From Anaerolineae bacterium (lineage in GTDB: Bacteria > Chloroflexota > Anaerolineae > B4-G1 > SLSP01), in the NCBI GenBank assembly GCA_040767155.1, contig JAXGPC010000005.1, positions 63,492 to 127,491 on the forward strand: DNA of 64,000 nt. The letters are read 5' to 3'. Positions 29,008-46,178 of the stretch are shown here, piece after piece. The notes beneath the pieces were generated by a model. It saw nothing but the letters and a program-made list of their open reading frames with translations, did not search any database and was not told the DNA's origin. Position numbers and translations under genes: made by a program. Position 1 is the stretch's first letter, and each line of letters starts with the position of its first letter.

Positions 29008-29418
29008 ATGGCGTTGCCCAGATTGCTACTGGTTGAGAACGATCCGTACTACATCTACTTGCTCCGAATGTATGCGGAACAGAGTGGGTTTGCCGTTGTC
29101 GTGGCCAGTTCGGGGATGGGGGTTGAGGCACTGGCACAACGGGAGAAGCCCGTTGTCATTGTTCTGGAGTCAGACCTCCCCGAGGTGAGCGGTTGGGAGG
29201 TCCTTTCAAGGCTGCGCTCCGAGCCATGTACGCAGACAACACCGGTAGTGATCTGTCTGTGGCAAGACAGCGAACGAGGCTATGAGGTGCACTCAACGGA
29301 GTTCGTGCTTCACAAGCCGATGGAGTTCGACGACTTTGTCTATGCACTCAGCACTTTGGGCGTGCTGTCCGGCGACAATCTTGGGCGCCCGCACTATCCT
29401 GCGCCGGCAGATGCCTGA
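29008..29418 (+). CDS. stand-alone response-regulator receiver domain protein
   Basis: CheY-like fold: LLLVENDPY...[18 protein letters not shown]...HKP with a conserved phospho-acceptor Asp context. No output domain. First gene of the 18 kb same-strand cluster. Confidence 0.65.
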
Positions 29419-29477
29419 GGCGTTTGCCTGCGGTTGGAGCACAGCCAGCATCGCACGACCGTGATGAGGAAGAGTCT

Positions 29478-30530
29478 ATGACCAACATCCAGACCCGAGA
29501 ACCGGCGCAGTATCTCCTGGAAGTTAATAACCTGAGGAAGCATTTCCCCATCACCCGGGGCTTTTTCTCCACAAAGACAGTGGGATATGTCAAAGCGGTG
29601 GATGATGTGAGCTTCTTCATCCGTCCAGGAGAGACGTTGGGTCTGGTGGGAGAGAGTGGTTGCGGGAAGACGACCACTGGGCGCGTCATCATGCGCGCCT
29701 ATGAACCGACCGGGGGCGAGGTGTGGTTCGATGACCAGGATCTTGGGCGTATCAATGTCGCCGATCTGGATCGACATCAACTCAAGCAGATGCGACAGAA
29801 CATGCAGATGATCTTCCAGGACCCCTATTCGTCTCTTAACCCTCGCATGACGCTACTGCAGATCGTTGGCGAACCCCTCTACGTCAATGGAATCGCCAAA
29901 GGATCCGAACTGCAGGATCGTGTGGCGAATCTGCTCCGTGTCGTTGGGCTCCGGCCGGAGTATATGACACGCTATCCCCATGCATTCAGCGGTGGGCAGC
30001 GGCAGAGGATTGGCGTCGCGCGAGCTTTGGCGGTGAACCCACAGCTCGTGGTCTGCGATGAACCGGTCTCGGCGCTGGACGTCTCCATCCAGGCACAGAC
30101 GCTAAACCTGCTTCAGGACCTGCAAGAGGAGTTCAATCTTACGTACCTCTTCATCTCGCACGATCTGAGTGTCGTCGAGCATATCAGTGACCGTGTTGCC
30201 GTGATGTATGTCGGCAAGCTGGTGGAACACGCCGCGACCAGCGTGCTGTTCTGGCATCCCCTTCATCCTTACACCGAAGCCCTGCTGTCTGCGGTCCCGA
30301 AGCCTGACCCGCGCTTCAGAACGGAGCCTATCGTCCTGGAGGGGGATGTCGCTGATCCTGCTAACCCGCCCAGTGGCTGTTATTTCCATCCTCGCTGCCG
30401 CTATGCACAGCCCATCTGTTCCGAGGAAGCGCCTGTGCTACGGGAGTTGGAGAAAGATCACTTTGTGAGTTGTCACCGGGCTGAGGAGCTTCACCTGATG
30501 GGTGTCCTCGGGAGGGAAAACACTGCCTGA
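29478..30530 (+). CDS. Opp/Dpp-family ABC transporter ATP-binding protein, OppF/DppF-like
   Basis: Walker [10 protein letters not shown], signature LSGGQRQR, Walker [13 protein letters not shown] and an Opp C-terminal domain ([10 protein letters not shown]). Preferred start is ATG at 29478 after a GAGGAAG RBS. Confidence 0.85.
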
Positions 30531-30644: not shown

Positions 30645-32726
30645 ATGAGTCAGCGACATAAGCTAACTCGGCGCCAGTTCCTGTACCTGTCCACTCTGGC
30701 AACTGCTGGTGCGGTTGCTTCGGCTTGTGGCGGACCTCTTACCCCGGAGGTAACCGAGCCGGAGCCGACCGCAGTGCCCGCGGAGCCTACGGCTGTGCCA
30801 CCTACGGCCAAGCCCGATGAGCCAGAAGCGACGGCGAAGCCCGCGGAACCCACAGCGGTACCGGAGCCCGTGAGCATGTACAAGGAAGCCCCGATGCTGG
30901 CAGCTCTGGTGGCATCGGGCGATCTTCCCCCGGTTGAGGAGCGCCTGCCCCTGAACCCGTACGTTGTCGATTGTCGTGAGTCCATTGGCAAGTACGGCGG
31001 GAACCTCCGCCGTGGCTTCAAGGGCGTCTCTGATCGCTGGGGACCCACGAAGCACGTCGACCGGACCCTCGTCTGGCTGGATCGCGACATGAATCTAATC
31101 CCCCGTCTCATCGAGAGCTGGGACGTCAGCGACGATGCCAAGACGTTCACGTTCCACCTGCGCAAGGGTCTCAAGTACTCCGATGGCGTGGAAATGACCA
31201 GCGCGGACTTCAAGTGGTATTACGAACACTATGCCGCGCATCCGGATCTCCAGCCGGGCTTGTGGACGAAGCTGACGACGGTTGGCGAGGATGGCAAGAA
31301 GGTTCTGTGTGAGGCAGAGTTCCCCGATGACTACACCGTCGTCTACAAGTTTGCGCATCCGAATCCCCTTCTGATGTACCAGGGGCTGCGCGAACTCCAT
31401 GGGTTCTCTATGCCTTCTCACTACATGAAGCAGTTCCACATTGACACAACGGATGACGTGGCCGCCCTCGAAACAGCCACCACGGAGGCCGGATTCAACG
31501 CCTGGAACGAGTACTTCGAAGACCGCCATTTGTTCCATCTGAATCCGGAGCACCCGTGGCCCACGCCGTGGATTGCCAAGAACTCGCTCAATGAGGAACT
31601 CTTCATGATGGAGCGAAACCCCTACTACTTTGGCGTCGATCCCGAAGGGAACCAACTCCCGTACCTCGATACGGTCACGCATCGCCTGTTCGAGGCCATC
31701 GATGTTTTCAACCTTTGGATCGTGAACGGGGAAATCGACTTCCACAACCGCCACGTCGCGCTTGCCAACTACAGCCTCTTCAAGGAGAACGAGGCCAACG
31801 GCGACTACAAAGTATTTGTGGGTGTCAGCGCCGGCCATGATGCGCTTCAACTCAACCTGGCGACCAAGGAGCCCAAGCTCAACGAGTTCTTCAACACGCG
31901 CGATGTCCGCATTGCCATCTCCCACGCCATCAATCGAGATGAGTACAACGACCTGATCTACGATGGCATGTGTACGCCGCGTCAGTACAGCCCGATCTCG
32001 CTGTCGGCCAACTACTATCCCAAGCTGTCAGAGGCCTACATCGACTACGATCCTGATCTGGCGAACCAGATGCTCGACGATGCGGGGTACGACCAGCGTG
32101 ACTCTGAAGGCTATCGGATGTTCAAAGATGGCAGCGGCCCAATCAGTTTCATCATCGAGGGCACGGCTGAGCCCGGTAGCAGTGGTGAGGATGGGGTACT
32201 GCTGATCGTGAAGTACCTGAACGATGTCGGCATCAAGGCGACTTGGAAGTACTTTGAGCGCTCGCTCTACACCGAGCACTATGAAGCCAATGAGATCGAG
32301 GCGGCGTGGTGGGGCGGTGACCGTACGGTGCTTCCATTGGCACCTTCGGCGATCATCTTCCGCGGTGTACAGCCTGACCGGCCATGGGCGGCCGGCTTCG
32401 GTCTGTGGTGGGAGGATGCTACCGATCCCAATGGTGTTGAGCCACCCGAGGGGCACTTCATCTGGAAGATCTGGGAAGCCTGGGACAAAGTTGCCGCGTC
32501 CCCGGACCCCGCGGATCAGAACAAGCACTTCCAGGAGCTCCTGGATATCTGGGCCGAGGAGTTGCCGATGATCGGTGTGGTGGGCGAGATGCCTGCCCCC
32601 ATCATTGTCAAGAACGGCTTCCACAACTACCTGCCAGGCCAGCCCATCGATGATACGTCTGGCGATGAGCACCTGCTGCAGACGGAGTCCTACTTCTGGG
32701 ACGATCCAGACGCGCACGCGGCCTAG
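30645..32726 (+). CDS. ABC transporter substrate-binding lipoprotein, SBP family 5 (peptide/oligosaccharide), with Tat-like signal and a Pro/Thr/Ala-rich linker
   Basis: N-terminal RRQFLYLSTLATAGAVASACGG (twin-Arg plus lipobox Cys), then a low-complexity linker (EPTAVPAEPTAVPPTAKPDEPEATAKPAEPTAVPEP), then a family-5 SBP fold. Length 693 aa. Confidence 0.85.
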   Translation: MSQRHKLTRRQFLYLSTLATAGAVASACGGPLTPEVTEPEPTAVPAEPTAVPPTAKPDEPEATAKPAEPTAVPEPVSMYKEAPMLAALVASGDLPPVEERLPLNPYVVDCRESIGKYGGNLRRGFKGVSDRWGPTKHVDRTLVWLDRDMNLIPRLIESWDVSDDAKTFTFHLRKGLKYSDGVEMTSADFKWYYEHYAAHPDLQPGLWTKLTTVGEDGKKVLCEAEFPDDYTVVYKFAHPNPLLMYQGLRELHGFSMPSHYMKQFHIDTTDDVAALETATTEAGFNAWNEYFEDRHLFHLNPEHPWPTPWIAKNSLNEELFMMERNPYYFGVDPEGNQLPYLDTVTHRLFEAIDVFNLWIVNGEIDFHNRHVALANYSLFKENEANGDYKVFVGVSAGHDALQLNLATKEPKLNEFFNTRDVRIAISHAINRDEYNDLIYDGMCTPRQYSPISLSANYYPKLSEAYIDYDPDLANQMLDDAGYDQRDSEGYRMFKDGSGPISFIIEGTAEPGSSGEDGVLLIVKYLNDVGIKATWKYFERSLYTEHYEANEIEAAWWGGDRTVLPLAPSAIIFRGVQPDRPWAAGFGLWWEDATDPNGVEPPEGHFIWKIWEAWDKVAASPDPADQNKHFQELLDIWAEELPMIGVVGEMPAPIIVKNGFHNYLPGQPIDDTSGDEHLLQTESYFWDDPDAHAA

Positions 32727-32925: not shown

Positions 32926-33915
32926 ATGCTGAAGTACATACTCAAGCGGATCGCGATCATGATTCCCACGCTAATCATGATCTCGATGATCTCGTTTGCG
33001 ATCATTCAATTGCCGCCCGGGGACTACCTTACCTCCTATGTGGCCGGGCTGCGCCAGATGGGTGATAACGTGGATGAGACCGAGATCGAGGCGCTCCGAC
33101 AGCGGTATGGGCTCGGCCAGCCGGTCTATGTTCAGTACTATAAGTGGGTCTCCGGAATAATCCTGCGGGGTGACTGGGGTCAGTCCATGGAGTGGCGCAA
33201 ACCGGTCAAGGACCTCATCTGGGAGCGGATGGCCCTGACAGTGGCGCTGTCCCTGGTCTCGGTTCTGGTGAGTTGGTTCGTGGCGATTCCCGTCGGGGTG
33301 TTTTCGGCGACCCATCAGTACTCACTGCCGGACTACGTCTTCTCGGCCCTGAGCTTCATTGGCGCGGGCTTGCCGGGTTTCATGATCGCTTTGGTGGTCA
33401 TGTGGGTGGCAATGCGCCAACTGGGACTCAATGTGGGTGGGCTCTTCTCACAGGAATACCTGGTGGCACCCTGGAGCTGGCCCAAGTTCGTAGACCTCCT
33501 CAAACACCTCTGGATCCCTGTACTCATTGTCGCACTGGGGAGCACGGCGGGCAGCATTCGTACGACGCGTGCCAACGTGCTGGATGAACTCAACAAACCC
33601 TATGTCGAGACGGCCCGTGCCAAGGGACTGAAGGAGCGGAAGTTGGTTTGGAAGTATCCGGTGCGCGTGGCGATGAACCCCTTCTTTAGCACGGTGGGCT
33701 GGACGTTGGCCAATCTCATTTCCGGTCAGACGTTGGTGGCCTATGTGCTCAGTCTGCAGACAACGGGACCGATGATGCTGCGTGCCCTGACATCGCAGGA
33801 TATGTATCTGGCAGGCAGTTTTCTATTGCTGCTGAGCACGCTCACGGTTATTGGCACGCTGATATCGGACATTCTGCTGGCGTGGTTCGACCCCCGCATT
33901 CGGGTGGAGGGCTAG
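32926..33915 (+). CDS. ABC transporter permease, DppB/OppB-like
   Basis: Six TM segments and the EAA-like motif region (ARAKGLKERKLVWKYPVRVAMNP) of binding-protein-dependent permeases. Confidence 0.85.
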   Translation: MLKYILKRIAIMIPTLIMISMISFAIIQLPPGDYLTSYVAGLRQMGDNVDETEIEALRQRYGLGQPVYVQYYKWVSGIILRGDWGQSMEWRKPVKDLIWERMALTVALSLVSVLVSWFVAIPVGVFSATHQYSLPDYVFSALSFIGAGLPGFMIALVVMWVAMRQLGLNVGGLFSQEYLVAPWSWPKFVDLLKHLWIPVLIVALGSTAGSIRTTRANVLDELNKPYVETARAKGLKERKLVWKYPVRVAMNPFFSTVGWTLANLISGQTLVAYVLSLQTTGPMMLRALTSQDMYLAGSFLLLLSTLTVIGTLISDILLAWFDPRIRVEG

Positions 33916-33918
33916 AAG

Positions 33919-35103
33919 ATGACAACCTCACCACGAGGTATCCCCGAGGAAGTGCGTGACCGGCAGGCGCTGGATAGAAGTCTTGAGGAAGAGGCCGCTG
34001 GCTTACAGGAGGAACGGCTCTATGTCGCCAGCCAATGGCAGTTGATGTGGTGGAAGTTCCGCAGACACAAGCTGGCAATGGCTGGAGGCGTCATCCTGAT
34101 CATCTTCTACCTGGTAGCCATCTTTGCGGAGTTTGTCGCGCCCTATGATCCCGAGGCCTACTTCGCCCGGTACAAACTGGCGCCGCCGACGCCCATCCGC
34201 ATCATCGATACCGAGGGTAACCTGCACCGCCCCTTCATCTACCAACGCGACCGCGTACGCAATGAAGAGACGCTGCGCTACTACTACATTGACGACATCA
34301 CGATCCTTCATCCCGTCAGGTTCTTCGTAAAGGGAACTCCCTACAAGCTCTGGGGACTCTTCGAAACCGACGTGCACCTTTTCGGCGTTGAGGCGGCCCG
34401 GGAGGAGCAGGGCGTGTTCCTGGCTGGTGCGGACCGGCTGGGGCGCGATGTGTTCTCACGACTTTGCTATGGCGCGCGGATCTCCCTTTCGATCGGTCTC
34501 ATTGGCGTTTTGTTGAGCCTGTTCCTGGGGATCATCTTGGGTGGGATCTCAGGATACTATGGCGGACGGATCGACACGATCATCCAGCGGGTGATCGAGT
34601 TCGTGCGCACGATTCCGAACATTCCATTGTGGATGGCGTTGAGTGCCGCTTTGCCCGCAGACTGGCCGGTAGTCCGACTCTACTTTGGCATCACCATCAT
34701 TCTCTCACTTATCGGGTGGACCGGGATGGCGCGGGTAGTTCGAGGGCGTTTCCTGGCGCTCCGCAATGAGGACTTTGTCCTGGCGGCGCGGCTCTGCGGC
34801 TCCAGTGAGATCCGCATCATCCTGCGGCACATGGTGCCTTCGTTCTTGAGTCATATCATTGCGAGCCTCACTATCGCGATACCTGGTACGATTCTCGGCG
34901 AGACAGGCTTGAGCTTCATCGGTCTGGGTCTGCGTGCTCCAGCGATCAGTTGGGGGGTTTTGCTACAGGAGGCCCAGAACGTCCGTTCGCTGGCACAGGC
35001 GCCTTGGGTCTTTGCCCCCGCTTTCGCCGTCGTGCTGACCGTGTTCGCTTTCAACTTCCTGGGCGACGGGCTTCGGGACGCGGCGGACCCGTACGCCCGT
35101 TAG
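33919..35103 (+). CDS. ABC transporter permease, DppC/OppC-like, with extended N-terminus
   Basis: OppC-type motifs (LGRDVFSRLCYGARISLSIGL...) and C-terminal TM bundle. It starts 4 nt after the previous gene. Confidence 0.85.
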   Translation: MTTSPRGIPEEVRDRQALDRSLEEEAAGLQEERLYVASQWQLMWWKFRRHKLAMAGGVILIIFYLVAIFAEFVAPYDPEAYFARYKLAPPTPIRIIDTEGNLHRPFIYQRDRVRNEETLRYYYIDDITILHPVRFFVKGTPYKLWGLFETDVHLFGVEAAREEQGVFLAGADRLGRDVFSRLCYGARISLSIGLIGVLLSLFLGIILGGISGYYGGRIDTIIQRVIEFVRTIPNIPLWMALSAALPADWPVVRLYFGITIILSLIGWTGMARVVRGRFLALRNEDFVLAARLCGSSEIRIILRHMVPSFLSHIIASLTIAIPGTILGETGLSFIGLGLRAPAISWGVLLQEAQNVRSLAQAPWVFAPAFAVVLTVFAFNFLGDGLRDAADPYAR

Positions 35104-35119
35104 TGATAGGAGCACATCA

Positions 35120-36154
35120 GTGGACAGTAATGACCTGCTCGTAGAAGTAAAGAACCTGCAGACCTACTTCTTCCTCGATGAGGGTACGGTTCGTGCGGTG
35201 GACGGCTGCGATTTCGATATCCATAGAGGCGAAGTCCTGGGTGTTGTGGGGGAGAGCGGCTGTGGGAAAAGCGTCACTGCACGGTCGATTATCAGAATTG
35301 TGGCCAAGCCGGGTCGTATTGTGGGCGGGCAGATTCTCTACCACCGGCGTCCAAATGGCAGCGGGCATGGAGAGGTGATCGATCTGACGAAGCTTCCGCC
35401 GCAAGGGGATGAGATGCGCCACATCCGCGGTGGTGAGATCTCGATGGTTTTTCAGGAGCCGATGACGTCTCTTAGTCCGGTTCACACAATTGGCAATCAG
35501 ATTGTTGAGGGCATTGTGCTACACCAGAACGTGGGCCCGGAGGAGGCGCGCGCGCGGGCAATCGAAATGCTGGACTTTGTGGGCATGCCATTCCCCAGCC
35601 GCACCATCGATCAGTTCTCGTACGAACTCAGCGGCGGGATGCGCCAACGCGCGATGATCGCTATGGCTCTCTCCTGCAACCCCAGCCTCCTGATCGCTGA
35701 TGAGCCCACGACGGCTCTCGATGTGACGACCGAAGCTCAGATTCTCACACTTATGCGCCGCTTGCAGTATGAGTTGGGAATGGCGATTATGTACATCACC
35801 CACAACCTGGGCGTAGTCGCACAGATGGCCGAGAATGTGGTTGTGATGTACATGGGAAAGATCGTGGAACAGGCCGATGTCGACACGATCTTCCACAAGC
35901 CACTGCATCCGTACACGCGGGCGCTGCTGCATTCCATCCCGCGTCTGGGAACCAAGACTGCAGAGCGGCGACGCCTCGCCTCCATCAGAGGGATGGTACC
36001 TGATCCCTACGCGCTCCCCAGAGGTTGTGCGTTTCACCCGCGGTGCAGTGACATGAGACCCGGCATGTGTGACGAGGTTGAGCCGCCCATGGTTGAGGTG
36101 GAGCCGGGACACAAGGTTCGCTGCCATCAGATTGCCGAACTACCCCAACCATGA
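35120..36154 (+). CDS. Opp/Dpp-family ABC transporter ATP-binding protein, OppD/DppD-like
   Basis: Walker A GESGCGKS, signature LSGGMRQR, Walker [13 protein letters not shown] and C-terminal CAFHPRC motif. Confidence 0.85.
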
Positions 36155-36157
36155 GAT

Positions 36158-37885
36158 ATGAAAGCATTCCTGGTCTTCCCCCCCCATTGGCTACCAACCA
36201 TGCCTCATCTTGCGCTGCCGATGCTCACCGCATCGCTGCGAGCGACGGGGATCGAGGTCATCCAGCGCGACCTCAATGTGGAGGTCTTTGACAGCCTGCT
36301 GACCCAGGCCTATCTCGAAGATTCCCTGGCACGCCTGGCATCGGAGCCGCCTGCAACTCTCACGCCCACCACAGTGAGACATGCGCTCGATCACGGCGCT
36401 GACCTTGCCCGTCGGGTTACGTCGGCCAAGGCGGTGATTCGCGATGCACGTTTCTACGATGGCCAAACCAGCGTCGAAGCGTTTATGACACTGGTTCAGG
36501 GGCTGGAGTTGGCGTCAATGCCATTCCACCCTACAGAGTTCCAGATCACCAGGTTCGTACCTCCGGGGTCGGTTGACAGTAGCCGGACGTTGCTGCAACT
36601 GGTCGAGGACCCTGGACGCAACCCCTTCTACGCCGTCTTTCAACGTGGCATTGTCCAGGATATCCTCCACGAACTTCCAGACCTTGTGGGGATCTCTATC
36701 CCTACCATGGACCAGATGCTGGCAGGAATGACCCTGGCCTATCTGCTCAAGCGAGCAGGGTCACCAGCGCATGTGACGATCGGCGGCCCGCACATTACGA
36801 TGCTGCGCGAGCAACTCCTGAAAACGCCAGCGCTGTTCGATCTCTTCGATAGCGCAGTTGTCTTCGCCGGCGAGGGTCCGCTTCTGCGATTGATGGAAAC
36901 CATCGACCAGGGCCATGCTCTCTCCAAGGTGCCCAATCTGATCTATCGAGAGCGGGGACGAGTTCGTGCTACACCTGTGGTGCCGGCGGGGGACTGTGCA
37001 GTCGCCGACTCCCGGGGCCCTGACTTTGACGGTCTGCCGCTCGACAGGTACCTGACTCCTGAACTGATCCTGCCGTTGTTGAGCTCCTATGGGTGTTACC
37101 ACGGAAAGTGTGCGTTCTGCAACGTGGGGTATGGTGGACCAGATCGATTCCGGATGATGGACCCTGACCTCGTCGTGGACCAGATGCGCGCGCTCCGGCA
37201 ACGCTACGGTAGCCGTCACTTCTTCTTTTCTGATGAGGCCCTGACGCCGCGAACACTACGGGTTCTGTCGACGCGGCTTGCCGAAGGGGGAGATGACCTG
37301 GCCTGGTGTGGTTGCGCACGCCTCGATCCAGGCCTGACACGGGAGTTGCTGGAGACGATGGCGAGCGGTGGGTGTCGTATGCTTCTCTTTGGGTTGGAGA
37401 CGGCTGCCGAGTCGACGATCGCGCGGATGCATAAGGGTACCGAGCGACAGACGATGAGCCGCATCCTCCGCGATAGCGCGACGGCCGGAATGTGGAACCA
37501 TGCTTTCTTCTTCTTTGGTTTTCCAGGAGAAACGATGGAAGCGGCGCAGGAAACGGTGGATTTCCTCTATGCGCATCAGGATGCCATTCATTCGGCATCG
37601 CCCGGAGCCTTTCTCCTGGAACGCTACGCACCGGCGCACCGCGACCCGGCCAGCTATGGCATCACACGCATCCAGGAAGACCCTGTGCGCGATCTGGCCA
37701 TTTACTTCGACTATGACGTAGCTTCGGGACTGGACGAGGCCATGGCGGACCGCCTGGCGTCGAGGCTCGTCGATGTGCTGCCCAACAAGGCATTCGGACA
37801 GTACTATGTGGCAGATAGTTACCGGTTCCTGTATGCCAGCCATCTTTGGGACCACGGCGAGCGGTTTCCGCTCTGGTTGGCATAG
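36158..37885 (+). CDS. B12-binding-domain radical SAM protein (class B rSAM-like) with non-canonical cluster motif CYHGKCAFC (Cx4Cx2C)
   Basis: N-terminal cobalamin-binding-like Rossmann region (MKAFLVFPPHWLPTMPHLALPMLTASLRATGIEV). rSAM core SSYGCYHGKCAFCNVGYGG...FFFSDEALTP, then a C-terminal extension. It starts 4 nt after the oppD-like stop, so it is co-transcribed with the ABC transporter. Confidence 0.75.
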   Translation: MKAFLVFPPHWLPTMPHLALPMLTASLRATGIEVIQRDLNVEVFDSLLTQAYLEDSLARLASEPPATLTPTTVRHALDHGADLARRVTSAKAVIRDARFYDGQTSVEAFMTLVQGLELASMPFHPTEFQITRFVPPGSVDSSRTLLQLVEDPGRNPFYAVFQRGIVQDILHELPDLVGISIPTMDQMLAGMTLAYLLKRAGSPAHVTIGGPHITMLREQLLKTPALFDLFDSAVVFAGEGPLLRLMETIDQGHALSKVPNLIYRERGRVRATPVVPAGDCAVADSRGPDFDGLPLDRYLTPELILPLLSSYGCYHGKCAFCNVGYGGPDRFRMMDPDLVVDQMRALRQRYGSRHFFFSDEALTPRTLRVLSTRLAEGGDDLAWCGCARLDPGLTRELLETMASGGCRMLLFGLETAAESTIARMHKGTERQTMSRILRDSATAGMWNHAFFFFGFPGETMEAAQETVDFLYAHQDAIHSASPGAFLLERYAPAHRDPASYGITRIQEDPVRDLAIYFDYDVASGLDEAMADRLASRLVDVLPNKAFGQYYVADSYRFLYASHLWDHGERFPLWLA

Positions 37886-37958
37886 TGGGGCACGAAGACT
37901 GTGTGTAGGAGGCTAAGGCGGAGGTCTCTCGCTGCCTCCAGCTTATCGAGGTAGCCCG

Positions 37959-38411
37959 ATGCGAAGATTGGCAGACCAGATTGCCGTGTTCCTGGCCTGG
38001 GCCGTGGCTACGGCTCTCGGCTTCTGGGCCATGGTGGTGGTCAGGCAGGCTCTGATGTCAAGCCTGGCGGTGCACTATGTGGGGGATTCGGTACGGCGTG
38101 GCTGGGTCGCCCGTTTCTGGGGTCAGGCCTATTACGCGATCGCCGGGCTGGTCTACCTCATCTTCATCTTTGTCGTCGATGGCTATCTCAAGGATGGCAG
38201 GCCGAAGCGCGATGTGTTCCGACGATTTTGCGCCGTGGTTGGTGGTGAGCTTCTGATCATTTTCGTTGCCGATGTCGTGACGTCATGGGTGCAGAGTACT
38301 ATGCTTGGACACCTAAGTCGCATCCTGATACCGGTTGAGGGGATCATAGGCGTCACAATGGTGGTCTATGCGCGACTGCACAGGGCTGCGAACCAGCGGA
38401 TAAGCAAATAA
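37959..38411 (+). CDS. small integral membrane protein, about 4 TM, hypothetical
   Basis: Hydrophobic segments (IAVFLAWAVATALGFWAMVVV; YYAIAGLVYLIFIFVV; VVGGELLIIFVADVV; IIGVTMVVYA). Sits inside the same-strand cluster. Confidence 0.4.
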   Translation: MRRLADQIAVFLAWAVATALGFWAMVVVRQALMSSLAVHYVGDSVRRGWVARFWGQAYYAIAGLVYLIFIFVVDGYLKDGRPKRDVFRRFCAVVGGELLIIFVADVVTSWVQSTMLGHLSRILIPVEGIIGVTMVVYARLHRAANQRISK

Positions 38412-38487
38412 GCGCCGGGGCACAGAGCCGCCCGAGCTTGTCCTCCATTTATCAAGAACCTTCCTCTCCAGAAGGAGAACTACCGTC

Positions 38488-41061
38488 ATGACGACAACCT
38501 GCGCCCGCTATGCCCTACAGGACGGCTACATCCACAACTGGTTGGTCCTGGGACCTTGGATTGCTTCCAGCGAGGGTGCTCGTGGCCTTCTCGCGGACCG
38601 ATCCTCTGACCCCGTCGTCCGTGTCGAGGCCTTGGAGCCTGCCTCGGTTGATGATGGAATTGTGGCATTCGAGGACTTTGAGGGCCGCTGGCAGTATCAT
38701 TCCTGTGCGGAGGACCACTTCGTAGATCTTTCCGACTTCACCTGCAGCACTCTTCATCTCCCTTCGGACCGACACCTGGTTGCGTGGGCCTATGTAGAGC
38801 TCGAGGTGCCTGCTGCGGGACCGGTGGGTGCTGTGGTGACCACAGCCTGGCAGCAGGGAGACACATCCGCCAGTGTCTGGATCAACGGGCTCCCACTTTT
38901 GGACGGGGACCCCCCAGTTGATCTGTCGCCTTCTTCTCCTCGTAGCTCGCACCTCAAGATGGACCTGGAGGCGGGACGCAACAGGGTCCTGGTCCGCTTT
39001 GAAGTGGTCGCAGCACGACCGTGCGCCTTTGCTGTTGCCTTGCGGGTCGAGGACGTGGCAGCAACGGTGTGTCTACCTACGGCGATCGAGCGTATTGAGC
39101 GGCGGGAACGGTTGGAGCGGGTCTTTCGGGCGGCACAAACGGATCGTTATGTATTCGCCCGCGAGGACGAGATCCGGTTCCGTTGGCCGTCGAAGGATGA
39201 GCCTGGCGGTACCTTCGACGACGCGACGCACATGACGGCACGCCTGTGCTCCCGTTCCGGCAGGATCTATGTCGAGACCGATCGAACTGCGCTGGCAGGC
39301 GATGCGGTGCGTCTGTGTCACGCTTACCAGCAGATAGGCGGTGCTTTCGATCTGGTCCTGATGCCGAGGCCTCAAGAGTACTACGAGCACGGCATGCGCA
39401 TCAGCCGGGCTATTCCTCTGTGGAGCCTTGGTAACAACCGCTATACGGAGTCATCAACCGATACCTTGCTCGAGCGGCGACGCGAGGCACTCGTCAGTGC
39501 CGCACGCTATGAAGCCGGTATCTACTCCGAGCTCGCCAAAATGGCACTGGGTTGGTGGTCGTTTGTGGACGAGGACCGGCTGCTCAAGCGGGTTGAGTCT
39601 CTCGGCGCTTTGAGCGGGCGGGATTGTCGCGAGCTGTTGGGCTTCTTGGGCATGATGTGTCGTTTTGTGGAAAAGCCCGAGTTCCCCGAACGGTTGCGTG
39701 CTGGGCTTTTCGCGATGGTTCCGGCATTGGAGTTCCCCGCCATAGGAGACGAGCTGCGCCCGGAAATCGCAGGGGACCCCCATGAACTGGTTGAGGCTGT
39801 TTGCGCGATTCTCGCGGGCCAGCTCTGTCCTGATGCCCCTCCGGGCGCAGCGTCTCCGACCGGAGAGGCGCGTCGCGAGCACGGGGCGAGACAGGCGCTC
39901 GCCTGGATGCAGGCGGTTGCGGCGATGGGGTTACGCGCGTGGCATTCCGATGTCGCCTTTGAGGAGACCGTCCTGGCGCTGGCGCACCTGATTGGCTATG
40001 CCGACAGCGAAGAGGTGTGGCAAATGGCGACGGTGCTGCTCGACAAGCTGCTCTTCCAACTGGCTGTGAATTCCTTCATGGGCGTGTTTGGGACCAGTCG
40101 GGGCACGACGTCGACGGCACATCTCTTTGGTGGGCATCTAGCGGCCACATCGGGCATCACGAAGCTGCTCTGGGGACAGGGGGTCTTCAATCCCAGTTTT
40201 GCTGCAACGGTGAGCCTTGCATGCCTCACGGAGTACGAGGTTCCCCTTATGTTCGGGGACATCGCCACCCAATCACTTGAGGAGGGGCTCTGGAGCCGTG
40301 AACGTCACGGATTGGGAGGCGTCAGCACTGCCACGTTCAGGACCCCTGCGTCGATGCTCTCTGCAGCATTGGACTACCGGCCCGGCGAGCCAGGTGAGGA
40401 AGAGCATATCTGGCAGGCCACGTGGGGTCCTGCGGCGACCGTCTTTGTAACGCACCCCGCCGCCAGCAGTCTGAGCGATGCGTGGGGCCCCAACTTCTGG
40501 CGTGGCAACGGCGTTCTCCCACGGGTGGCACAGTGGCGCGATGCTCTGATTGCCCTGTATGCCTTGCCTGCTGATGATTGGATGGGCTTCACCCACGCAT
40601 ACTTCCCAATGGTTGCATTTGATGAAGGGGCTGTCCGTGGCCGGTGGGCTTTTGCTCGCAAGGGAGACGGCTACCTGGCACTGGGAGCCAGCCAGGATCT
40701 CTTGCTGATACGCACCGGAGAGTCGGCCTACCGTGAGTTGCGTGTCAAGGGACGGCACACGGTCTGGCTCTGTCAGATGGGGCGAGCCTCGGAAGATGGC
40801 GACTTCGCCACATTCCAGGAGAAGGTCCAGGCGCTCTCGGTCACCTATGGCGAACTCAGTGTGTGCTGGGAAACGCTGCGCGGTGACACGCTCGCCTTTG
40901 ATTGGACAGGCCCATTCCTCAGGAATGGTGAACCTCTGGCTCTTTCAGTGGAGAACGCGATCGAGAACCCCTACTGTTCTGCTGGCTTCCCCACTGATGC
41001 GATGGAAATCCGTCACGGCGATGTGGCGATGCGGCTCGACTTCGCCACACATCGCTCATAG
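38488..41061 (+). CDS. large cytoplasmic protein (857 aa) whose C-terminal half is paralogous to the two downstream proteins; possible heparinase II/III-like (alpha/alpha-toroid plus beta-sandwich) polysaccharide lyase or hydrolase family, unverified
   Basis: AAGGAG RBS before ATG. C-terminal motifs shared with 42309-44237 and 44256-46178: YRPGEPGEEEHIWQATWG / YRAGKPGYQQHIWQATL; NFWRGNGVLPRVAQ / NYWAGNGVMPRAAQHEN; FTHAYFPMVAFDE / FSHAYFPTEAFDE; FARKGDGYLAL / FGRKGDGYVAL. N-terminal roughly 200 aa look like a beta-sandwich (galactose-binding-like) domain. No signal peptide. Confidence 0.65.
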   Translation: MTTTCARYALQDGYIHNWLVLGPWIASSEGARGLLADRSSDPVVRVEALEPASVDDGIVAFEDFEGRWQYHSCAEDHFVDLSDFTCSTLHLPSDRHLVAWAYVELEVPAAGPVGAVVTTAWQQGDTSASVWINGLPLLDGDPPVDLSPSSPRSSHLKMDLEAGRNRVLVRFEVVAARPCAFAVALRVEDVAATVCLPTAIERIERRERLERVFRAAQTDRYVFAREDEIRFRWPSKDEPGGTFDDATHMTARLCSRSGRIYVETDRTALAGDAVRLCHAYQQIGGAFDLVLMPRPQEYYEHGMRISRAIPLWSLGNNRYTESSTDTLLERRREALVSAARYEAGIYSELAKMALGWWSFVDEDRLLKRVESLGALSGRDCRELLGFLGMMCRFVEKPEFPERLRAGLFAMVPALEFPAIGDELRPEIAGDPHELVEAVCAILAGQLCPDAPPGAASPTGEARREHGARQALAWMQAVAAMGLRAWHSDVAFEETVLALAHLIGYADSEEVWQMATVLLDKLLFQLAVNSFMGVFGTSRGTTSTAHLFGGHLAATSGITKLLWGQGVFNPSFAATVSLACLTEYEVPLMFGDIATQSLEEGLWSRERHGLGGVSTATFRTPASMLSAALDYRPGEPGEEEHIWQATWGPAATVFVTHPAASSLSDAWGPNFWRGNGVLPRVAQWRDALIALYALPADDWMGFTHAYFPMVAFDEGAVRGRWAFARKGDGYLALGASQDLLLIRTGESAYRELRVKGRHTVWLCQMGRASEDGDFATFQEKVQALSVTYGELSVCWETLRGDTLAFDWTGPFLRNGEPLALSVENAIENPYCSAGFPTDAMEIRHGDVAMRLDFATHRS

Positions 41062-41082: not shown

Positions 41083-42240
41083 ATGGCAAAGACAGGCGTA
41101 GGTGCACGTTGGGAATCGGAATTGTCCGTCCACCAGGACCCGAAGAGCGGGGCCACGGTCCACCAGTTGACAGCCTATAAGGGCCATAGTAGCCACTTCT
41201 ACTTCACATATCCGTGCTGGTATGACAAGGGCAGAAAGATCGTGTTCACCTCCGATCGCGAGAACCGGACGAACCTGTTTGGCGTTGACCTGGAGAGCGG
41301 CGAAATTACCCAGCTCACGGATTTTGACTCTGCGGAGGGAGGTGTCGGTGGTCTGAGCAAGAACCCGGTACGAGAGGAGATCTACTTCCACCGTGGTAGG
41401 GTCTTGACAGCGCTCGACCTGACGACGCTGGAGCAGCGTCCGATCTATACGCGCCCTGAAGGCTACGTGGGTGGCAGTTCGAATGCGACGGCTGACGGCA
41501 AGACCATCTGTGTGGGACACTACAAGGATCTCTCGGATCGCTTTATGATCGATCTGGGTCACGGCTACGTTGGTTTCCGCGAGATCTGGGAAGCCCATCC
41601 GCCCTCAACGATCTTGAAGATCCCGGTCGAGGGCGGCACCCCTGAGGTGATCTATCAGGAGGATTATTGGTTGGGGCACTTCAACTGCTCGGGTAAGCAC
41701 CCCAACATTATGACCTTCTGTCACGAGGGACCGTGGACACTGGTAGAGAATCGGATCTGGGGCCTTGACCTCAATACGGGTGAAGCTTGGCAGATCCGCC
41801 CCAATGCGCCTGGCGAGGCGATCGGGCACGAGTACTGGATGAGCGATGGCGAGCACATCGGTTACCACGGCACCACGCCGCAGGGGCCGGTCTACGGCGC
41901 GATCCGTTACGACAACACCGATCAAGTCGAGGCACCCTTTGAGGGGCATTGCTGGCATTTTCACAGCCATATGCTTGAGCTGGTGGTCGGTGACGGCGAT
42001 GCCAAGGATCCGTATCTGCTGCTGTGGCGCTTTCACGAGGGGGCGTTCGAAGGGCCAAAGGTCCTCGTCTGGCACCGCGGCTCTTTCCATACACAGCGGG
42101 TCCACCTCCACCCTTGCTTCAACAGCGAGGGGACGCAGGTGATCTATACGGCTGACCCACAGGGGTATGGGCAGGTCTTTGCTGTAGATGTGCCGGCGTG
42201 GGAGACGCTTCCTGACTTGGCCGATGTGAAGGCGAGGTGA
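41083..42240 (+). CDS. ogl: oligogalacturonide lyase (PL22 family, Ogl-like beta-propeller)
   Basis: Aligns with enterobacterial Ogl: TFCHEGPWTLVENRIW vs AFCHEGPHDLVDARMW; LELVVGDGDA vs TLLVGDGADA; HLHPCFNSEGTQVIYTAD vs HPHPSFTPDDKQVLFTSD. 385 aa, cytoplasmic. Confidence 0.8.
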   Translation: MAKTGVGARWESELSVHQDPKSGATVHQLTAYKGHSSHFYFTYPCWYDKGRKIVFTSDRENRTNLFGVDLESGEITQLTDFDSAEGGVGGLSKNPVREEIYFHRGRVLTALDLTTLEQRPIYTRPEGYVGGSSNATADGKTICVGHYKDLSDRFMIDLGHGYVGFREIWEAHPPSTILKIPVEGGTPEVIYQEDYWLGHFNCSGKHPNIMTFCHEGPWTLVENRIWGLDLNTGEAWQIRPNAPGEAIGHEYWMSDGEHIGYHGTTPQGPVYGAIRYDNTDQVEAPFEGHCWHFHSHMLELVVGDGDAKDPYLLLWRFHEGAFEGPKVLVWHRGSFHTQRVHLHPCFNSEGTQVIYTADPQGYGQVFAVDVPAWETLPDLADVKAR

Positions 42241-42247: not shown

Positions 42248-42278
42248 CGGGGCGGCGCTGCGGGTGAGCGCCGCCCCG
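42248..42278 (+). other. perfect GC-rich stem-loop between ogl and the downstream paralog gene
   Basis: GGGGCGGCGC-tgcgggtga-GCGCCGCCCC, a 10-11 bp perfect stem with a 9-nt loop and no U-tract. Candidate intercistronic RNA processing/stability element or attenuator. Confidence 0.4.
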
Positions 42279-42308
42279 ACGCTATCACCAACTGACACAG
42301 AGGCATTC

Positions 42309-44237
42309 ATGCAGGACGAGTTCTGGCGTGAGCCGCGCTTCACCTTCGAAGAGCGGCGGCAGCAGTATCTGGCGTATTGTGCAGCGCAGTCGCCGGGTGG
42401 GCGAATTGGTTTCTTCAGCCAGATTGCTCGGCTCGAGTTGGGGCAGCCTGTGGATGAGGGGCCAATTCGCGAAGCGTTGGCCTTTGTCGACTCCAGGAAG
42501 GACTGTGTTGACTTCACGATCGCAGGTCTGCTGCGGATTATCTACCGTTATGATCAGAGCCCAAACATCGCCACGGGCCTGATTGCTGACATCGAGACCT
42601 GTCTGCTTGGGTTCAAGTACTGGTGGGACGAGCCGGGCGATAACAGGCGTTGTTATCACACGGAGAACCACCAGATTCTCTTCCACTCCGACGAGCTGTT
42701 GTTGGGACAGCGGCTAAGGGACCGCACCTTCACCAACGATGGCCGGAACTGGCGGGCGCATATGGCGCACGGGCTGCGCCTCACACGTCGCTGGCTCGAC
42801 CACCGGGCGCGCTTCGGCTATAGTGAGTGGCTGTCCAACTGCTACTTCGAGGAGGACCTTCTCGCTCTGCTCAACCTCTACGACTTCGCTGAGGATGAGG
42901 GGGTTCGGCGTCAAGCAAAGGCGCAGATCGATGTCCTGCTCTTTGAGATGGCATTGCACACGTATCGCGGGATCTTCGGTGCGACCCATGGCCGCACCTA
43001 CCCCCGCCTGATCAAGGGTGCCCGTGGCGAGGCAACAGCCTCGACGACCAAACTCATCTTCGGGATGGGCCACTTCAACGATCCAAGTGCCCTCGGGGCC
43101 GTCTCTCTTGCTGCGAGCTCCTATCGTTGTCCACCTATCCTTCAGAGGATTGCGGCAGATCTGGACCGCCCCATGGTGTTCCGGGAGCGCCACAGCCTCA
43201 ATCTGGAGGATGCCCCGGCTTTTGGCATTGCCTATGACAGCCTTGAAGATGGTGGCTTGTTCTGGAGTGTCCAGGACTGTATGTGCCCGGCGGTCCTTCC
43301 CCTGGCGGACTACATGGCTGTCTTGCAGGGGGTCTATGTCTATGACAATTCTCAAGAGATCTATGACGGAGCCTTTGCCTGGCAGATCGAGGAACACGGT
43401 GAGGTGGTGGATCTTGATGTCGATCGTCACGCACTCACTGAGGTGCACATCCAGACCTACCGCACGCCAGACTATCTGCTGAGCTGTGCTCAGGACTACC
43501 GCGCCGGCAAGCCCGGCTACCAACAACACATCTGGCAGGCAACGCTGGACCTCGATGCCGTGGTCTTCACCAGCCACCCTGGCTCTGACGATGAGACCTC
43601 TCGTCCCAACTACTGGGCCGGAAATGGGGTTATGCCACGTGCCGCCCAGCACGAGAACGTCCTGGTCTGTATCTACCACCTGCCGTCCAGGGACGCCTTC
43701 CCTTTCAGCCATGCCTACTTCCCCACTGAAGCGTTCGACGAGGTTGTGGAATGCTCCCCGTGGATCTTCGGTCGCAAGGGCGATGGATACGTCGCCTTGT
43801 TCTCCCAACACCCCTGGCATTGGGTCGGTGCCGGTGATACGCCGCGCACCGATCTGCGCGTAGACGCCGTAGACAATGTCTGGCTCGTTGAGATGGGACG
43901 CAAGCGCACAGGCGAGCACGGAGGGGATTGGGATAGCTTTGACGCGTTTATCCGTGCCATCGCTGCAAGTCCCGTGTCGTGCGACGGATTGTCAGTCAGT
44001 TACGTTTCCCCTTCCCGGGGAGAGGTACGTTTCGGTTGGCATGGCCCGCTGATGGTGCGGCGACAGCAAGTCGCGCTCCGGAGTGATTTGCGATACGACA
44101 ATCCCTACTGCCGCTGTCTGGCCCCGCGCGGCTCTTCCCCGGGGAATGGTCAAGCGACCGATGGGTTGGCGTTCACCGTCCGGCGCGGCGATGACGTCCT
44201 CGATATCGATCTTCAGCTTCTAGCTCCGCCACGCTAA
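42309..44237 (+). CDS. paralog A of an uncharacterised large cytoplasmic protein family (about 640 aa; possible heparinase II/III-like lyase, unverified)
   Basis: Preferred start is ATG 42309 (MQDEFWREPRFTFEERRQQYLAYCA), which aligns with the paralog B start MEDIYWDSPQATYEERRLQYLALCA. The ORF-track GTG at 42264 lies inside the upstream hairpin. Shared motifs along the full length: KYWWDEP, CYHTENHQI, FGYSEWLSNCYFEEDL, ALHTYRG and YHLP...FPFSHAYFPT. Confidence 0.7.
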   Translation: MQDEFWREPRFTFEERRQQYLAYCAAQSPGGRIGFFSQIARLELGQPVDEGPIREALAFVDSRKDCVDFTIAGLLRIIYRYDQSPNIATGLIADIETCLLGFKYWWDEPGDNRRCYHTENHQILFHSDELLLGQRLRDRTFTNDGRNWRAHMAHGLRLTRRWLDHRARFGYSEWLSNCYFEEDLLALLNLYDFAEDEGVRRQAKAQIDVLLFEMALHTYRGIFGATHGRTYPRLIKGARGEATASTTKLIFGMGHFNDPSALGAVSLAASSYRCPPILQRIAADLDRPMVFRERHSLNLEDAPAFGIAYDSLEDGGLFWSVQDCMCPAVLPLADYMAVLQGVYVYDNSQEIYDGAFAWQIEEHGEVVDLDVDRHALTEVHIQTYRTPDYLLSCAQDYRAGKPGYQQHIWQATLDLDAVVFTSHPGSDDETSRPNYWAGNGVMPRAAQHENVLVCIYHLPSRDAFPFSHAYFPTEAFDEVVECSPWIFGRKGDGYVALFSQHPWHWVGAGDTPRTDLRVDAVDNVWLVEMGRKRTGEHGGDWDSFDAFIRAIAASPVSCDGLSVSYVSPSRGEVRFGWHGPLMVRRQQVALRSDLRYDNPYCRCLAPRGSSPGNGQATDGLAFTVRRGDDVLDIDLQLLAPPR

Positions 44238-44255: not shown

Positions 44256-46178
44256 ATGGAGGATATCTACTGGGACAGCCCGCAAGCGACGTATGAGGAA
44301 CGCCGGCTGCAATATCTGGCGCTCTGTGCGACCGAGCCGGTGCCACAGCGGGGCCCGGGCCGCAGGATAGGGTGTTTTGGCCAGATCGCGCGCCTTGAGC
44401 TCGGGCTGCCGGCAAGTGAAGGACCGCTCCGCGATGCCATAGCCTATGCTGACTCGCGCGAGGACTGCTGTGACTTTGCCGTCGGGGGGCTGCTCCGCAT
44501 TCTCTATCTCTACGATGACAGCCCCAACCTTGCGTCAGACCTGGTCGCCGATATCGAGGCGTGCCTCTTGCGCTTCAAGTACTGGTGGGACGAACCCCTG
44601 GGCGACAATGATCGCTGCTATCATACTGAGAACCACCAGATCATCTTCCATGCTGATGAGCTTCTTGCGGGTCAGCGCTTCAAAGGGCAGGTCTTCTCGA
44701 ATAGCGGGCAGACTGGAAGCTACCATGTAGACCATGCGCTACACTTCATCCGGCGCTGGCTTGATTTCCGCGAGCGCTTCGGCTACAGCGAGTGGCTCTC
44801 CAACTGCTACTTCGAGGAAGACCTGCAAGCCCTGGTGAACCTTCACGACTTTGCCGAAGACCCGGAAATCCGCCGGCGGGCCAGGGCGCAGATCGACGTG
44901 ATCCTCTTTGAGATGGCGCTGCATACGTACCGCGGGGTCTTTGGCTCCACGCATGGGCGGAGCTATGCCTTCCTGCTCAAGGGCGGGCGTCACGAAGGCT
45001 CGGCCTCGACGGTAAAGTTGATGTTTGGTATGGGCCTCTTCAACCACGCCAGCCAGGGGACCGTGTCCCTGGCGACAAGCACATACCGCTGTCCGCCGCT
45101 CATCGCCGAGATTGCCGCCGACCTCGACGAACCACTCCTGGCCCGGGAGCGGCATAGCCTGAACATGGAGGATGCGCCGGCCTGGGGGCTCTCCTACACC
45201 GACCCTGAGGATGGTCACCTTTACTGGAGCGTCCAGGATTACACGCATCCCGCGATCTATGACCTGGCACAGGAGACCCGGCGGCTGCGACAGATCATGC
45301 TCTACGAGGACTATCAGGCACGCTATGACCAGATCCTGCAGTGGCAAGTCGATGAGTCCGGCGAGGTCGTCGACCAGGACATCGATTGCCATGCGATGAC
45401 AGAGGTGCATATTCAGACTTATCGCACCCCGTCCTATATGTTGAGCTGCGCTCAGGACTATCGGCCTGGCAAGCCGGGCTACCAACAGCATCCCTGGCAG
45501 GCGACGCTGGGCATCGATGCTGTCGTTTTCACGAATCATCCCGGTGCTGCAGACGAGATCTCGCGCCCCAACTACTGGGCTGGGAATGGCATCTTGCCCC
45601 GCGCCGCGCAACACGAGAACATACTGGTTTGCCTCTACCATCTCCCTGCCAACGACGCCTTCCCCTTCTCACACGCTTACTACCCGACCGGCGCGTTCGA
45701 TGAGGTGCTGGAGCGCGAGCAATGGGTGTTCGGGCGAAAGGGGCATGGGTATATCGCACTCTATACACAGCATCCGGGGTATTGGCTTCCCGATGGTGAT
45801 CAGCCACGGGTGGAACTGCGTGTGGAAGCCCCGGACAACATCTGGCTTGTCGAGATGGGACAGCAGTCGGCGTGGGGTAGTTTTGAGGCGTTCGTCGAGG
45901 CGATCGCCTCGAGCCCTGTGAAGTGCGAAGGTCTGTCGCTGCGGTATGTCTCACCGTCTCAAGGCGAGGTGACCTTCGGCTGGCGGGGCCCGCTACGGGT
46001 TGGGGGCAATGAAGCCCCACTCAGAAGCAATCTGCGCTATGATAATCCCTATTGCCAGTGGGCGCCGCCATTTCCCGGCGAATCCCCGGACGAGGACCGT
46101 GACCAGAGGGTGCTTTCAATCCGGCGTGGCGATGCGGTGCATCGCATCGACTTTGCGTATCGCGGAGACGTAGGCTAA
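44256..46178 (+). CDS. paralog B of the same family (640 aa), tandem duplicate of 42309-44237
   Basis: Roughly 60-70% identical by eye to paralog A over the whole length. AAAGGAGAG RBS upstream. Confidence 0.7.
   Translation: MEDIYWDSPQATYEERRLQYLALCATEPVPQRGPGRRIGCFGQIARLELGLPASEGPLRDAIAYADSREDCCDFAVGGLLRILYLYDDSPNLASDLVADIEACLLRFKYWWDEPLGDNDRCYHTENHQIIFHADELLAGQRFKGQVFSNSGQTGSYHVDHALHFIRRWLDFRERFGYSEWLSNCYFEEDLQALVNLHDFAEDPEIRRRARAQIDVILFEMALHTYRGVFGSTHGRSYAFLLKGGRHEGSASTVKLMFGMGLFNHASQGTVSLATSTYRCPPLIAEIAADLDEPLLARERHSLNMEDAPAWGLSYTDPEDGHLYWSVQDYTHPAIYDLAQETRRLRQIMLYEDYQARYDQILQWQVDESGEVVDQDIDCHAMTEVHIQTYRTPSYMLSCAQDYRPGKPGYQQHPWQATLGIDAVVFTNHPGAADEISRPNYWAGNGILPRAAQHENILVCLYHLPANDAFPFSHAYYPTGAFDEVLEREQWVFGRKGHGYIALYTQHPGYWLPDGDQPRVELRVEAPDNIWLVEMGQQSAWGSFEAFVEAIASSPVKCEGLSLRYVSPSQGEVTFGWRGPLRVGGNEAPLRSNLRYDNPYCQWAPPFPGESPDEDRDQRVLSIRRGDAVHRIDFAYRGDVG

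Follow-up and report, generated by a model that had tools for sequence, protein, structure and literature searches.

A radical SAM protein family with a B12-binding-like domain and a Cx4Cx2C cluster motif, conserved beside probable acidic-oligosaccharide importers of Chloroflexota

The 64,000-nucleotide stretch of contig JAXGPC010000005.1 from an Anaerolineae bacterium (assembly GCA_040767155.1), henceforth the window, encodes at positions 36158..37885 of the + strand a 575-residue radical S-adenosylmethionine (SAM) protein with a B12-binding-like domain, which lies within an array of transporter and carbohydrate genes. An original prediction, made from the letters of this DNA, had singled out the gene both for its iron-sulfur cluster motif and for its setting. 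Our analysis indicates that the motif is ordinary for the clade to which the protein belongs, and that the operon context is conserved and unexplained. Sequence comparisons assign the protein to a family, as yet uncharacterised, that is found almost exclusively in Chloroflexota. Given that the superfamily is a known one, the protein is not categorically new; what is new is its family, with signatures of its own, and a catabolic setting tied to an importer. The explanation that we prefer, tentatively and with a rough probability of 0.45, is that the gene product is a functional cytoplasmic radical SAM enzyme of class-B architecture, that its family is a fixed accessory of an ATP-binding cassette (ABC) importer for acidic (uronate-containing) oligosaccharides, and that it would act, in a step that needs no oxygen, on the imported uronate oligosaccharide or on the uronate released from it.

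The gene is an intact open reading frame (ORF) with an ATG start. Its length fits that of its homologues (555–628 residues) and at least 1410 database proteins match it at E≤1e-3, which together argue that it is a real gene and not a chance ORF. The Pfam Radical_SAM model (PF04055) matches residues 310–470 with 55.8 bits (cutoff 29.5), placing the protein in the superfamily, and the B12-binding model (PF02310) matches residues 165–229 (36650..36844, + strand) with 40.9 bits (cutoff 32.1), giving it the class-B architecture; the two domains named in the original prediction are thus both present. The B12-binding match contains the motifs 'GISIPT' and 'GGPH', which correspond respectively to the strand-3 loop and the GG elements of the cobalamin Rossmann fold. 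In an alignment of 28 sequences, over which the family shows a mean column identity of 63%, the residues S180, T183, G209, G210 and H212 of this domain are invariant. The protein is a putative cobalamin binder. An AlphaFold2 (AF2) model of the protein (predicted local distance difference test score, pLDDT, 87; predicted TM-score, pTM, 0.89) displays six core strands, and a Foldseek search with it recovered TsrM, OxsB, MgmA, AprD4 and TokK. The order of the secondary-structure elements in this model suggests that a helical insertion, about 135 residues long, splits the first two Rossmann strands (residues 2–7 and 33–38) from the remainder of the fold (residue 176 onwards).

Two further motifs typify the radical SAM core. 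At the 'GGE' position the protein has SDE (37229..37237, + strand), where 112 of the 120 closest homologues have ADE, as in OxsB; the surrounding FF(A/S)DE is invariant in the family and supplies the SAM-binding motif. The second is a cysteine pair, WCGC, at residues 383–386 (37304..37315, + strand), which falls on a predicted core β-strand (382–386) of the model. It is specific to the family, being found in 118 of 120 members and absent from the outgroups.

The [4Fe-4S] cluster motif, CYHGKCAFC (residues 313–321; 37094..37120, + strand), directly follows the strand formed by residues 304–307 in the model, and with its Cx4Cx2C spacing is one residue longer than the canonical CxxxCxxC. This had led to the suspicion that a 3-nt sequencing or assembly indel lay within the motif, or that the gene was a decaying pseudogene. 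We found the Cx4Cx2C spacing in all 120 of the closest homologues, which share 54–100% identity and come from many independent assemblies, and the Cx3Cx2C spacing in none of them. A profile search of 1.84 billion representatives recovered 3650 relatives at E≤1e-30; among the best 150 of these, inspected as a set of distant representatives (≤50% identity), 139 carry Cx4Cx2C, mostly in the form CYWxxCxFC. In a profile alignment, OxsB displays GCDYSRCTFC, with the same GCxxxxCxFC spacing as the family, and this enzyme has been reported to possess a CX4CX2C cluster motif, with Ala361-Asp362-Glu363 as its 'GGE' motif (PMC9204698). Since the same spacing recurs in the homologues, in the distant representatives and in the crystallised OxsB, Cx4Cx2C is, by sequence comparison, a native trait of the clade with a crystallographic precedent. 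The full-length ORF together with these counts rules out the artefact, whose chances we regard as negligible; nothing about the present copy speaks for it, and its closest parallel is a single homologue that is frameshift-split in a long-contig assembly. In that locus (L093, positions 3393–5050 on an 11.3-Mb contig) the homologue is broken into two ORFs covering residues 31–182 and 182–575, which reflects either an assembly frameshift or a pseudogene. The motif is therefore a true variant, as had been proposed, but it is not exotic, being the norm for the whole clade and already known in OxsB. A signature peculiar to the family does lie in the cluster loop, where histidine replaces tryptophan (CYHG versus the CYW of the sister clade).

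The protein scored best among the NCBIfam models with TIGR03975, the radical SAM C-methyltransferases of the maturation of RiPPs (peptides that are made by ribosomes and then carry post-translational modifications), at 112.6 bits against a cutoff of 281.85, followed by the ApyD model at 103.7 bits, likewise below its cutoff. Further sub-cutoff matches were to PhpK, a ladderane-lipid enzyme, HpnJ and BchE (TIGR02026; 58.4 bits versus 481.35), and the AprD4 model (NF033070) gave 19.2 bits versus 500. As every score is far below the curated threshold, we rejected membership in the BchE, TIGR03975, ApyD, PhpK, HpnJ and AprD4 families and place the protein in none of the curated NCBIfam families. 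Many of the homologues (P0012–P0120) bear the JGI name 'anaerobic magnesium-protoporphyrin IX monomethyl ester cyclase', that is BchE; given the low BchE score, these names are over-annotations that have been propagated. A search of the PDB with the single protein yielded no match, and the best PDB sequence match of the family profile was OxsB (1e-12). Among the more distant relatives we noted some of unusual size: P0263 and P0265, each exceeding 2200 residues, have at least four canonical Cx3Cx2C motifs about 500 residues apart, consistent with tandem B12-radical SAM modules; P0341 (2096 residues) has eight stretches matched by the profile; and P0243 (1411 residues) has two Cx4Cx2C modules.

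A scan of 185,579 species genomes detected 241 relatives, from which 80 loci were kept, almost all from metagenome-assembled genomes of Chloroflexota (Anaerolineae, Caldilineae, Thermoflexales and others). In 72 of the 80, tblastn detected a gene for an ABC ATPase with the oligo_HPY domain beside the radical SAM gene. We then considered the 34 loci that extend for 7 kb or more on either side of the gene: 33 possess ABC genes, 28 possess at least one of a lyase-fold protein, PL22, PcRGLX, GH4 or GH67, 25 encode the lyase-fold family represented in the window by an 857-residue protein, and 17 encode a small transmembrane (TM) protein that occurs in 35 of all 80 loci. The radical SAM gene adjoins the genes for the solute-binding protein (SBP), permeases and ATPases of the importer in three different orders, namely SBP-permease-permease-ATPase-radical SAM, the same with two ATPase genes, and TM-ATPase-radical SAM-SBP-permease-permease-ATPase. 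Hence its placement in a same-strand carbohydrate gene array, noted in the original prediction for this one locus, is a conserved feature, and the gene holds a fixed position where the importer genes meet those for glycan enzymes. Glycan-related genes recur as neighbours among the 80 loci, including GH4 in 12, PcRGLX-like genes in 10 and GH67 α-glucuronidases in 9, in addition to GH28, GH88, GH3, GH43, dehydratases of the ILVD/EDD (sugar-acid) type, SDR, GFO and AKR oxidoreductases and LacI or AraC regulators. Three divergent homologue loci combine the importer and the radical SAM gene with an unassigned protein of about 860 residues, with PcRGLX-like, PL22 and GH88 genes nearby; L001 and L006 additionally carry a small unassigned protein.

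Several other regularities were considered as clues to the function and set aside. Of the 49 SBPs from loci L011–L088 and the window, 46 bear a twin-arginine signal and a lipobox cysteine, and accordingly appear to be lipoproteins exported by the twin-arginine translocation (TAT) pathway; as this holds for second SBP copies too, the signal is too general to hint at modification in the cytoplasm. The small TM protein does not qualify as an obligate partner of the radical SAM protein, given its presence in only 35 of 80 loci and its occurrence without the radical SAM gene in locus L094. Genes of the URO-D-like (MtaA) type, which might have pointed to methyl transfer, lie in only four of the radical SAM loci and also in L122 and L123, which lack the radical SAM gene.

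An independent scan of metagenomes, seeded with an alignment of the SBP, recovered loci 31–96% identical to it, and the presence of the radical SAM gene declines with this identity. It was found in all three evaluable clusters at ≥50% identity (L100, where it is cut by the end of the locus, L103 and L110), in two of three at 38–41% (L112 and L113 but not L121), and in none of about 12 evaluable clusters at ≤37%. The distant clusters carry other sugar genes, for example GH38 beside a lyase-fold protein, or genes resembling NagA and NagB. Their lack of the radical SAM gene, shared by locus L094, marks it as a clade-specific accessory that neither the lyase-fold proteins nor transporters of this type require in general. 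Carbohydrate genes also adjoin the two closest outgroup members that lack a peptide-recognition domain. One of them, P0242, is preceded by a GH13 gene and a member of the small TM family (E 2.7e-30) and followed by a PcRGLX-like protein; the other, P0244, follows an SBP with TAT and lipoprotein signals and two CUT1-type permeases; these contexts argue against a specific interaction with the Opp-type ATPase and for a role tied to the imported sugar. A dedicated partnership with the oligo_HPY ATPase, which the adjacency in 72 of 80 loci might suggest, is weakened both by P0244 and by L100, where the order is SBP-permease-permease-radical SAM with no ATPase gene in between. A member of the small TM family stands beside the outgroup radical SAM gene in L089.

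In the window, the radical SAM gene belongs to an array of + strand genes spanning 29008–47225, with intergenic gaps of 3–199 nt. The TGA of the preceding ABC ATPase ORF ends at 36154 and the ATG lies at 36158, leaving a 3-nt gap, so that the start directly behind the ATPase stop is as had been described. A scan of the locus for consensus promoters and terminators gave no signal above shuffled sequences, and gene spacing is hence the sole basis on which we take the array to be co-transcribed. Upstream of the array Pfam identifies a 1262-residue hybrid sensor/regulator (25007..28795, + strand) comprising a periplasmic-binding-protein-like sugar sensor, HisKA, HATPase, a receiver and an AraC-type helix-turn-helix domain, which also stands upstream of the homologous loci L001, L011, L012, L017 and L033. 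The array itself, all on the + strand, opens with a single-domain response regulator (29008..29418; Pfam), separated by 5 nt from the gene for ABC ATPase 1 (29424..30530; ABC_tran and oligo_HPY in Pfam, with a visible Cys-rich oligo_HPY tail at the C-terminus). There follow the 693-residue family-5 SBP (30645..32726; SBP_bac_5), a lipoprotein with a twin-arginine signal and a probable binder of acidic oligosaccharides, permease 1 (32926..33915; Pfam), which is 59–93% identical across loci, permease 2 (33919..35103; OppC_N in Pfam) and ABC ATPase 2 (35120..36154; ABC_tran and oligo_HPY in Pfam).

By its Pfam domains (SBP_bac_5, OppC_N, oligo_HPY) the transporter is of the Opp/Dpp 'peptide/nickel' type and not a classical CUT1 or CUT2 system, and the label 'sugar ABC importer' of the original prediction needs to be qualified to that extent. 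It retains its justification in the SBP, whose PDB relatives are a Thermotoga maritima protein (5ipw, 2e-102) and SPH1118 of Sphingomonas (7ver, 6e-58), the latter having been shown to bind pectin and oligogalacturonides, and not peptides (PMC9314435). From the resemblance to this pectin-oligosaccharide binder, an acidic oligosaccharide is the most likely ligand of the importer.

Downstream of the radical SAM gene lies the small membrane protein (37959..38411, 150 residues, 3–4 TM segments), which has no Pfam or NCBIfam match; hidden Markov model (HMM) and hhalign comparisons unite the small TM proteins of the loci in one unnamed family with the motif (E/D)GY(L/Y)(R/K). Next is the 857-residue cytoplasmic protein (38488..41061), whose predicted structure consists of an N-terminal jelly-roll, an (α/α) toroid and a β-sandwich. 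A PL22-like oligogalacturonate lyase with a β-propeller fold (41083..42240; Pfam PF14583, 2.3e-33, full length) separates it from two further proteins of 657 and 640 residues (42264..44237 and 44256..46178). BLASTP shows the former to be a paralogue of the toroid and sandwich part, the C-terminal two-thirds, of the 857-residue protein, and the latter to be 63% identical to the 657-residue protein. None of the three is matched by a Pfam or NCBIfam model or by a sequence of the PDB, and their predicted fold is that of uronate lyases and epimerases (PL35, DS-epimerase, heparinase II/III); on the strength of these models they probably constitute an undescribed polysaccharide-lyase-like family. The last gene of the array encodes a third oligo_HPY ATPase (46203..47225; Pfam), 62% identical to ATPase 2, with no permease genes to go with it; the gene that comes after lies on the opposite strand. 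The regulator with its periplasmic-binding-protein sensor and AraC domain, the SBP akin to a pectin binder, the PL22-like lyase and the three lyase-fold paralogues mark the region as a carbohydrate utilisation locus, probably for uronate oligosaccharides.

The remainder of the window consists of housekeeping genes. Two ORFs there deserve mention: one (49521–50741) encodes a single 406-residue protein with the unusual pairing of a mechanosensitive-channel β-domain and a ParB N-terminal domain, and another (51046–51981) encodes a second radical SAM protein with ferredoxin-type 4Fe-4S domains, which resembles the activases of glycyl radical enzymes; no glycyl radical enzyme to accompany it is encoded in the window.

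Under the preferred explanation, the radical SAM protein would act on the oligosaccharide, or the uronate released from it, after import. The reduced [4Fe-4S] cluster would cleave SAM to a 5'-deoxyadenosyl radical, which would take a hydrogen atom from a sugar carbon of either substrate, and the resulting substrate radical would then lose or rearrange a group that hydrolases and lyases cannot remove. Candidate reactions include the elimination of an O-methyl ether (e.g. the 4-O-methyl of glucuronate) or another ether substituent, a deoxygenation of the diol-dehydratase type as in AprD4, and an OxsB-like ring rearrangement; each of these, taken singly, is unlikely to be the actual one. The WCGC pair could give back a hydrogen atom or electrons, cobalamin could assist in radical or redox control, and the product would pass to the lyase-fold proteins, PL22, GH4 or GH67 and other enzymes encoded downstream, making the radical step the first and chemically difficult one in the use of the imported oligosaccharide or uronate. 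The original prediction had offered epimerisation, methyl transfer or dehydration of a uronate oligosaccharide, all of which would be plausible. A bolder version, which we consider rather doubtful, is that this is the first class-B radical SAM enzyme of a catabolic kind, which would 'deprotect' or rearrange imported uronate oligosaccharides without oxygen; it may, for example, remove O-methyl or other ether groups by radical chemistry or achieve a deoxygenation like that of ribonucleotide reductase through the WCGC pair. The counterparts of such an anaerobic O-demethylation in aerobes are the P450 or dioxygenase demethylases.

A number of observations weigh against this explanation. The closest relatives in HMM searches are the RiPP C-methyltransferases and PhpK, and a large sister clade, of proteins with 700 or more residues, has the N-terminal part, B12 domain, core and Cx4Cx2C motif in common with the family and bears in addition a PqqD-like domain for peptide recognition. 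Judged by ancestry, methyl transfer, or action on a peptide or protein, is thus just as likely as sugar chemistry. The B12-binding match of the present protein is only moderate, several homologues give a weak or faint PF02310 signal, and AprD4 illustrates that a B12-type domain need not bind cobalamin. The substituents at the 4-O position of uronates can in principle be removed by ordinary β-elimination, so that radical chemistry is not obviously required. The GH67 and GH4 genes, which provide the link to 4-O-methyl-glucuronate, are found in only about 19 of the 80 loci and not in the present window. Finally, the regulator of the present locus recurs in L094 together with the small TM protein, a lyase-fold protein and an importer (whose SBP is 30% identical) and with no radical SAM gene, and in L149 and L166, which likewise lack it, the lyase-fold family lies next to GH38. 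The gene is thus indeed absent from some comparable clusters, an outcome that the original prediction had held would speak against a functional link; however, L094, L121, L149 and L166 are distant and paralogous, and the three evaluable close transporter orthologues (SBP identity ≥50%) all have the gene.

It is from ancestry and from the prior for the class that explanations based on methyl transfer draw their strength. One of these is that the protein is a cobalamin-dependent methyltransferase that C-methylates a protein or peptide of the locus, for example the SBP, a lyase-fold protein or the small membrane protein, a possibility for which the class-B enzymes modifying methyl-coenzyme M reductase (MCR) and RiPPs provide the precedent. 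The ranking of TIGR03975 and ApyD as the best models and the PqqD or RiPP recognition element (RRE) domains of the sister clade favour it, as does the fact that most characterised class-B enzymes are methyltransferases (PMC12931638). However, all those scores are far under the curated cutoffs; Pfam finds no PqqD or RRE domain in the protein itself, and no precursor-like peptide gene was seen among the neighbours, which are transporter and glycan genes. Moreover, no gene of the loci is constant enough to be the target, judging from the 25 and 17 of 34 well-flanked loci that have the 857-residue family and the TM protein, one relative follows a different importer type, and the TAT and lipobox signals of the SBPs are too general to count as specific evidence. 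We accordingly regard protein methylation as improbable.

A further alternative is a C- or O-directed methyl transfer to the imported sugar or another small molecule, which would trigger its breakdown or divert it to biosynthesis. The class-B prior for methylation again favours this, and there are precedents in GenK and Fom3-type enzymes, which methylate sugars and small molecules, and in ChuW/HutW, a catabolic radical SAM methyltransferase of the haem uptake operon that serves haem breakdown. Yet we know of no step in a uronate or pectin pathway that needs methylation, the family-specific cysteine pair is not, to our knowledge, a feature of class-B methylases, and in its regulation and layout the locus resembles a catabolic operon; we hold this alternative to be quite improbable. 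There is also a role outside sugar chemistry to be considered, in which the protein is a transporter accessory that senses redox state, SAM or B12, or is encoded by an unrelated gene kept in place by shared ancestry within one phylum. The association is indeed strongest with transporter genes and not with any single catabolic enzyme, and since nearly all loci stem from a single phylum, the synteny counts are inflated by vertical inheritance. Against this, the adjacency has outlasted at least three rearrangements and, in a relative, a switch to a CUT1-type importer, a further relative has glycan enzymes with no transporter in view, and all the catalytic radical SAM motifs are invariant; we therefore give it very little credence.

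The catabolic setting had been called unusual for this class, and the literature supports that judgement. Full-text searches turned up no B12-dependent radical SAM enzyme in polysaccharide utilisation, in sugar O-demethylation or in Anaerolineae; lipid-modifying class-B members appear among their results, and no catabolic class-B enzyme does. All the enzymes discussed in a 2026 review of the class are biosynthetic (antibiotics, cofactors, bacteriochlorophyll, protein modifications), and the words 'catabol' and 'degradation' are absent from it (PMC12931638). A family fixed in the sugar-import operons of Anaerolineae, Caldilineae and relatives would point to an oxygen-free radical reaction, missing from current pathway maps, by which acidic polysaccharides of plants or microbes are broken down. 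Either reaction of the bolder version, the radical removal of an ether group or the deoxygenation through the WCGC pair, would open a new kind of anaerobic chemistry on carbohydrates in Chloroflexota. Anaerolineae, Caldilineae and their relatives are reported to be common in anaerobic digesters and sediments. The locus, with its SBP, lyase-fold proteins without a family and radical SAM protein, offers a defined test system from which a new enzyme reaction as well as a new family akin to polysaccharide lyases could emerge. In practical terms, Cx4Cx2C in this clade should not be flagged as an error, and the public 'BchE' annotation of the family is wrong.

Among systems already known, OxsB of oxetanocin A biosynthesis (PDB 5UL2–5UL4) is the nearest solved structure. 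As in the present protein, its cobalamin-type Rossmann domain precedes the radical SAM core, and it has the CX4CX2C and ADE motifs, a sugar ring as substrate and a native reaction other than methyl transfer. It differs in being 744 residues long (versus 575 here) and only about 13–16% identical, with the profile aligning solely to its residues 167–494 and not over the full length. Its Asn186, which lies under the corrin, is replaced by Pro182 in the present protein, and the WCGC pair is missing from it. OxsB is a biosynthetic enzyme outside any importer operon and works with an HD-domain partner, OxsA, whereas Pfam detects no HD-domain protein among the neighbours here. The RiPP C-methyltransferases of the TIGR03975/ApyD types and their PqqD-fused relatives, the highest-scoring of the curated models, have in their sister-clade representatives the same N-terminus, B12 domain and core and the motif CYWxxCxFC; the present family is set apart from them by CYHG in place of CYW, by the WCGC pair, by the lack of an RRE or PqqD domain and of a precursor, and by its carbohydrate importer context. 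AprD4, the radical SAM 1,2-diol dehydratase acting on paromamine (PDB 6FD2; Foldseek 2e-10, profile match 1e-4), likewise combines a B12-like N-terminal domain with a radical SAM core and exemplifies radical chemistry without methyl transfer on a carbohydrate; it is not known to use cobalamin and, unlike the importer-linked protein described here, is biosynthetic. The family-5 binding proteins SPH1118 and 5IPW are related to the SBP of the locus at moderate identity, and we know of no radical SAM gene in their operons. The operon logic finds its parallels in uptake-linked catabolic radical enzymes such as ChuW/HutW, which opens haem anaerobically, PhnJ of the C-P lyase and the anaerobic sulfatase-maturating enzymes of polysaccharide loci. 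These belong to other classes (class C, PhnJ-type and SPASM, respectively), act on other substrates and are kin in sequence at the superfamily level only; like the locus described here, they couple an importer to a radical SAM enzyme that overcomes an inert bond or a maturation step without oxygen.

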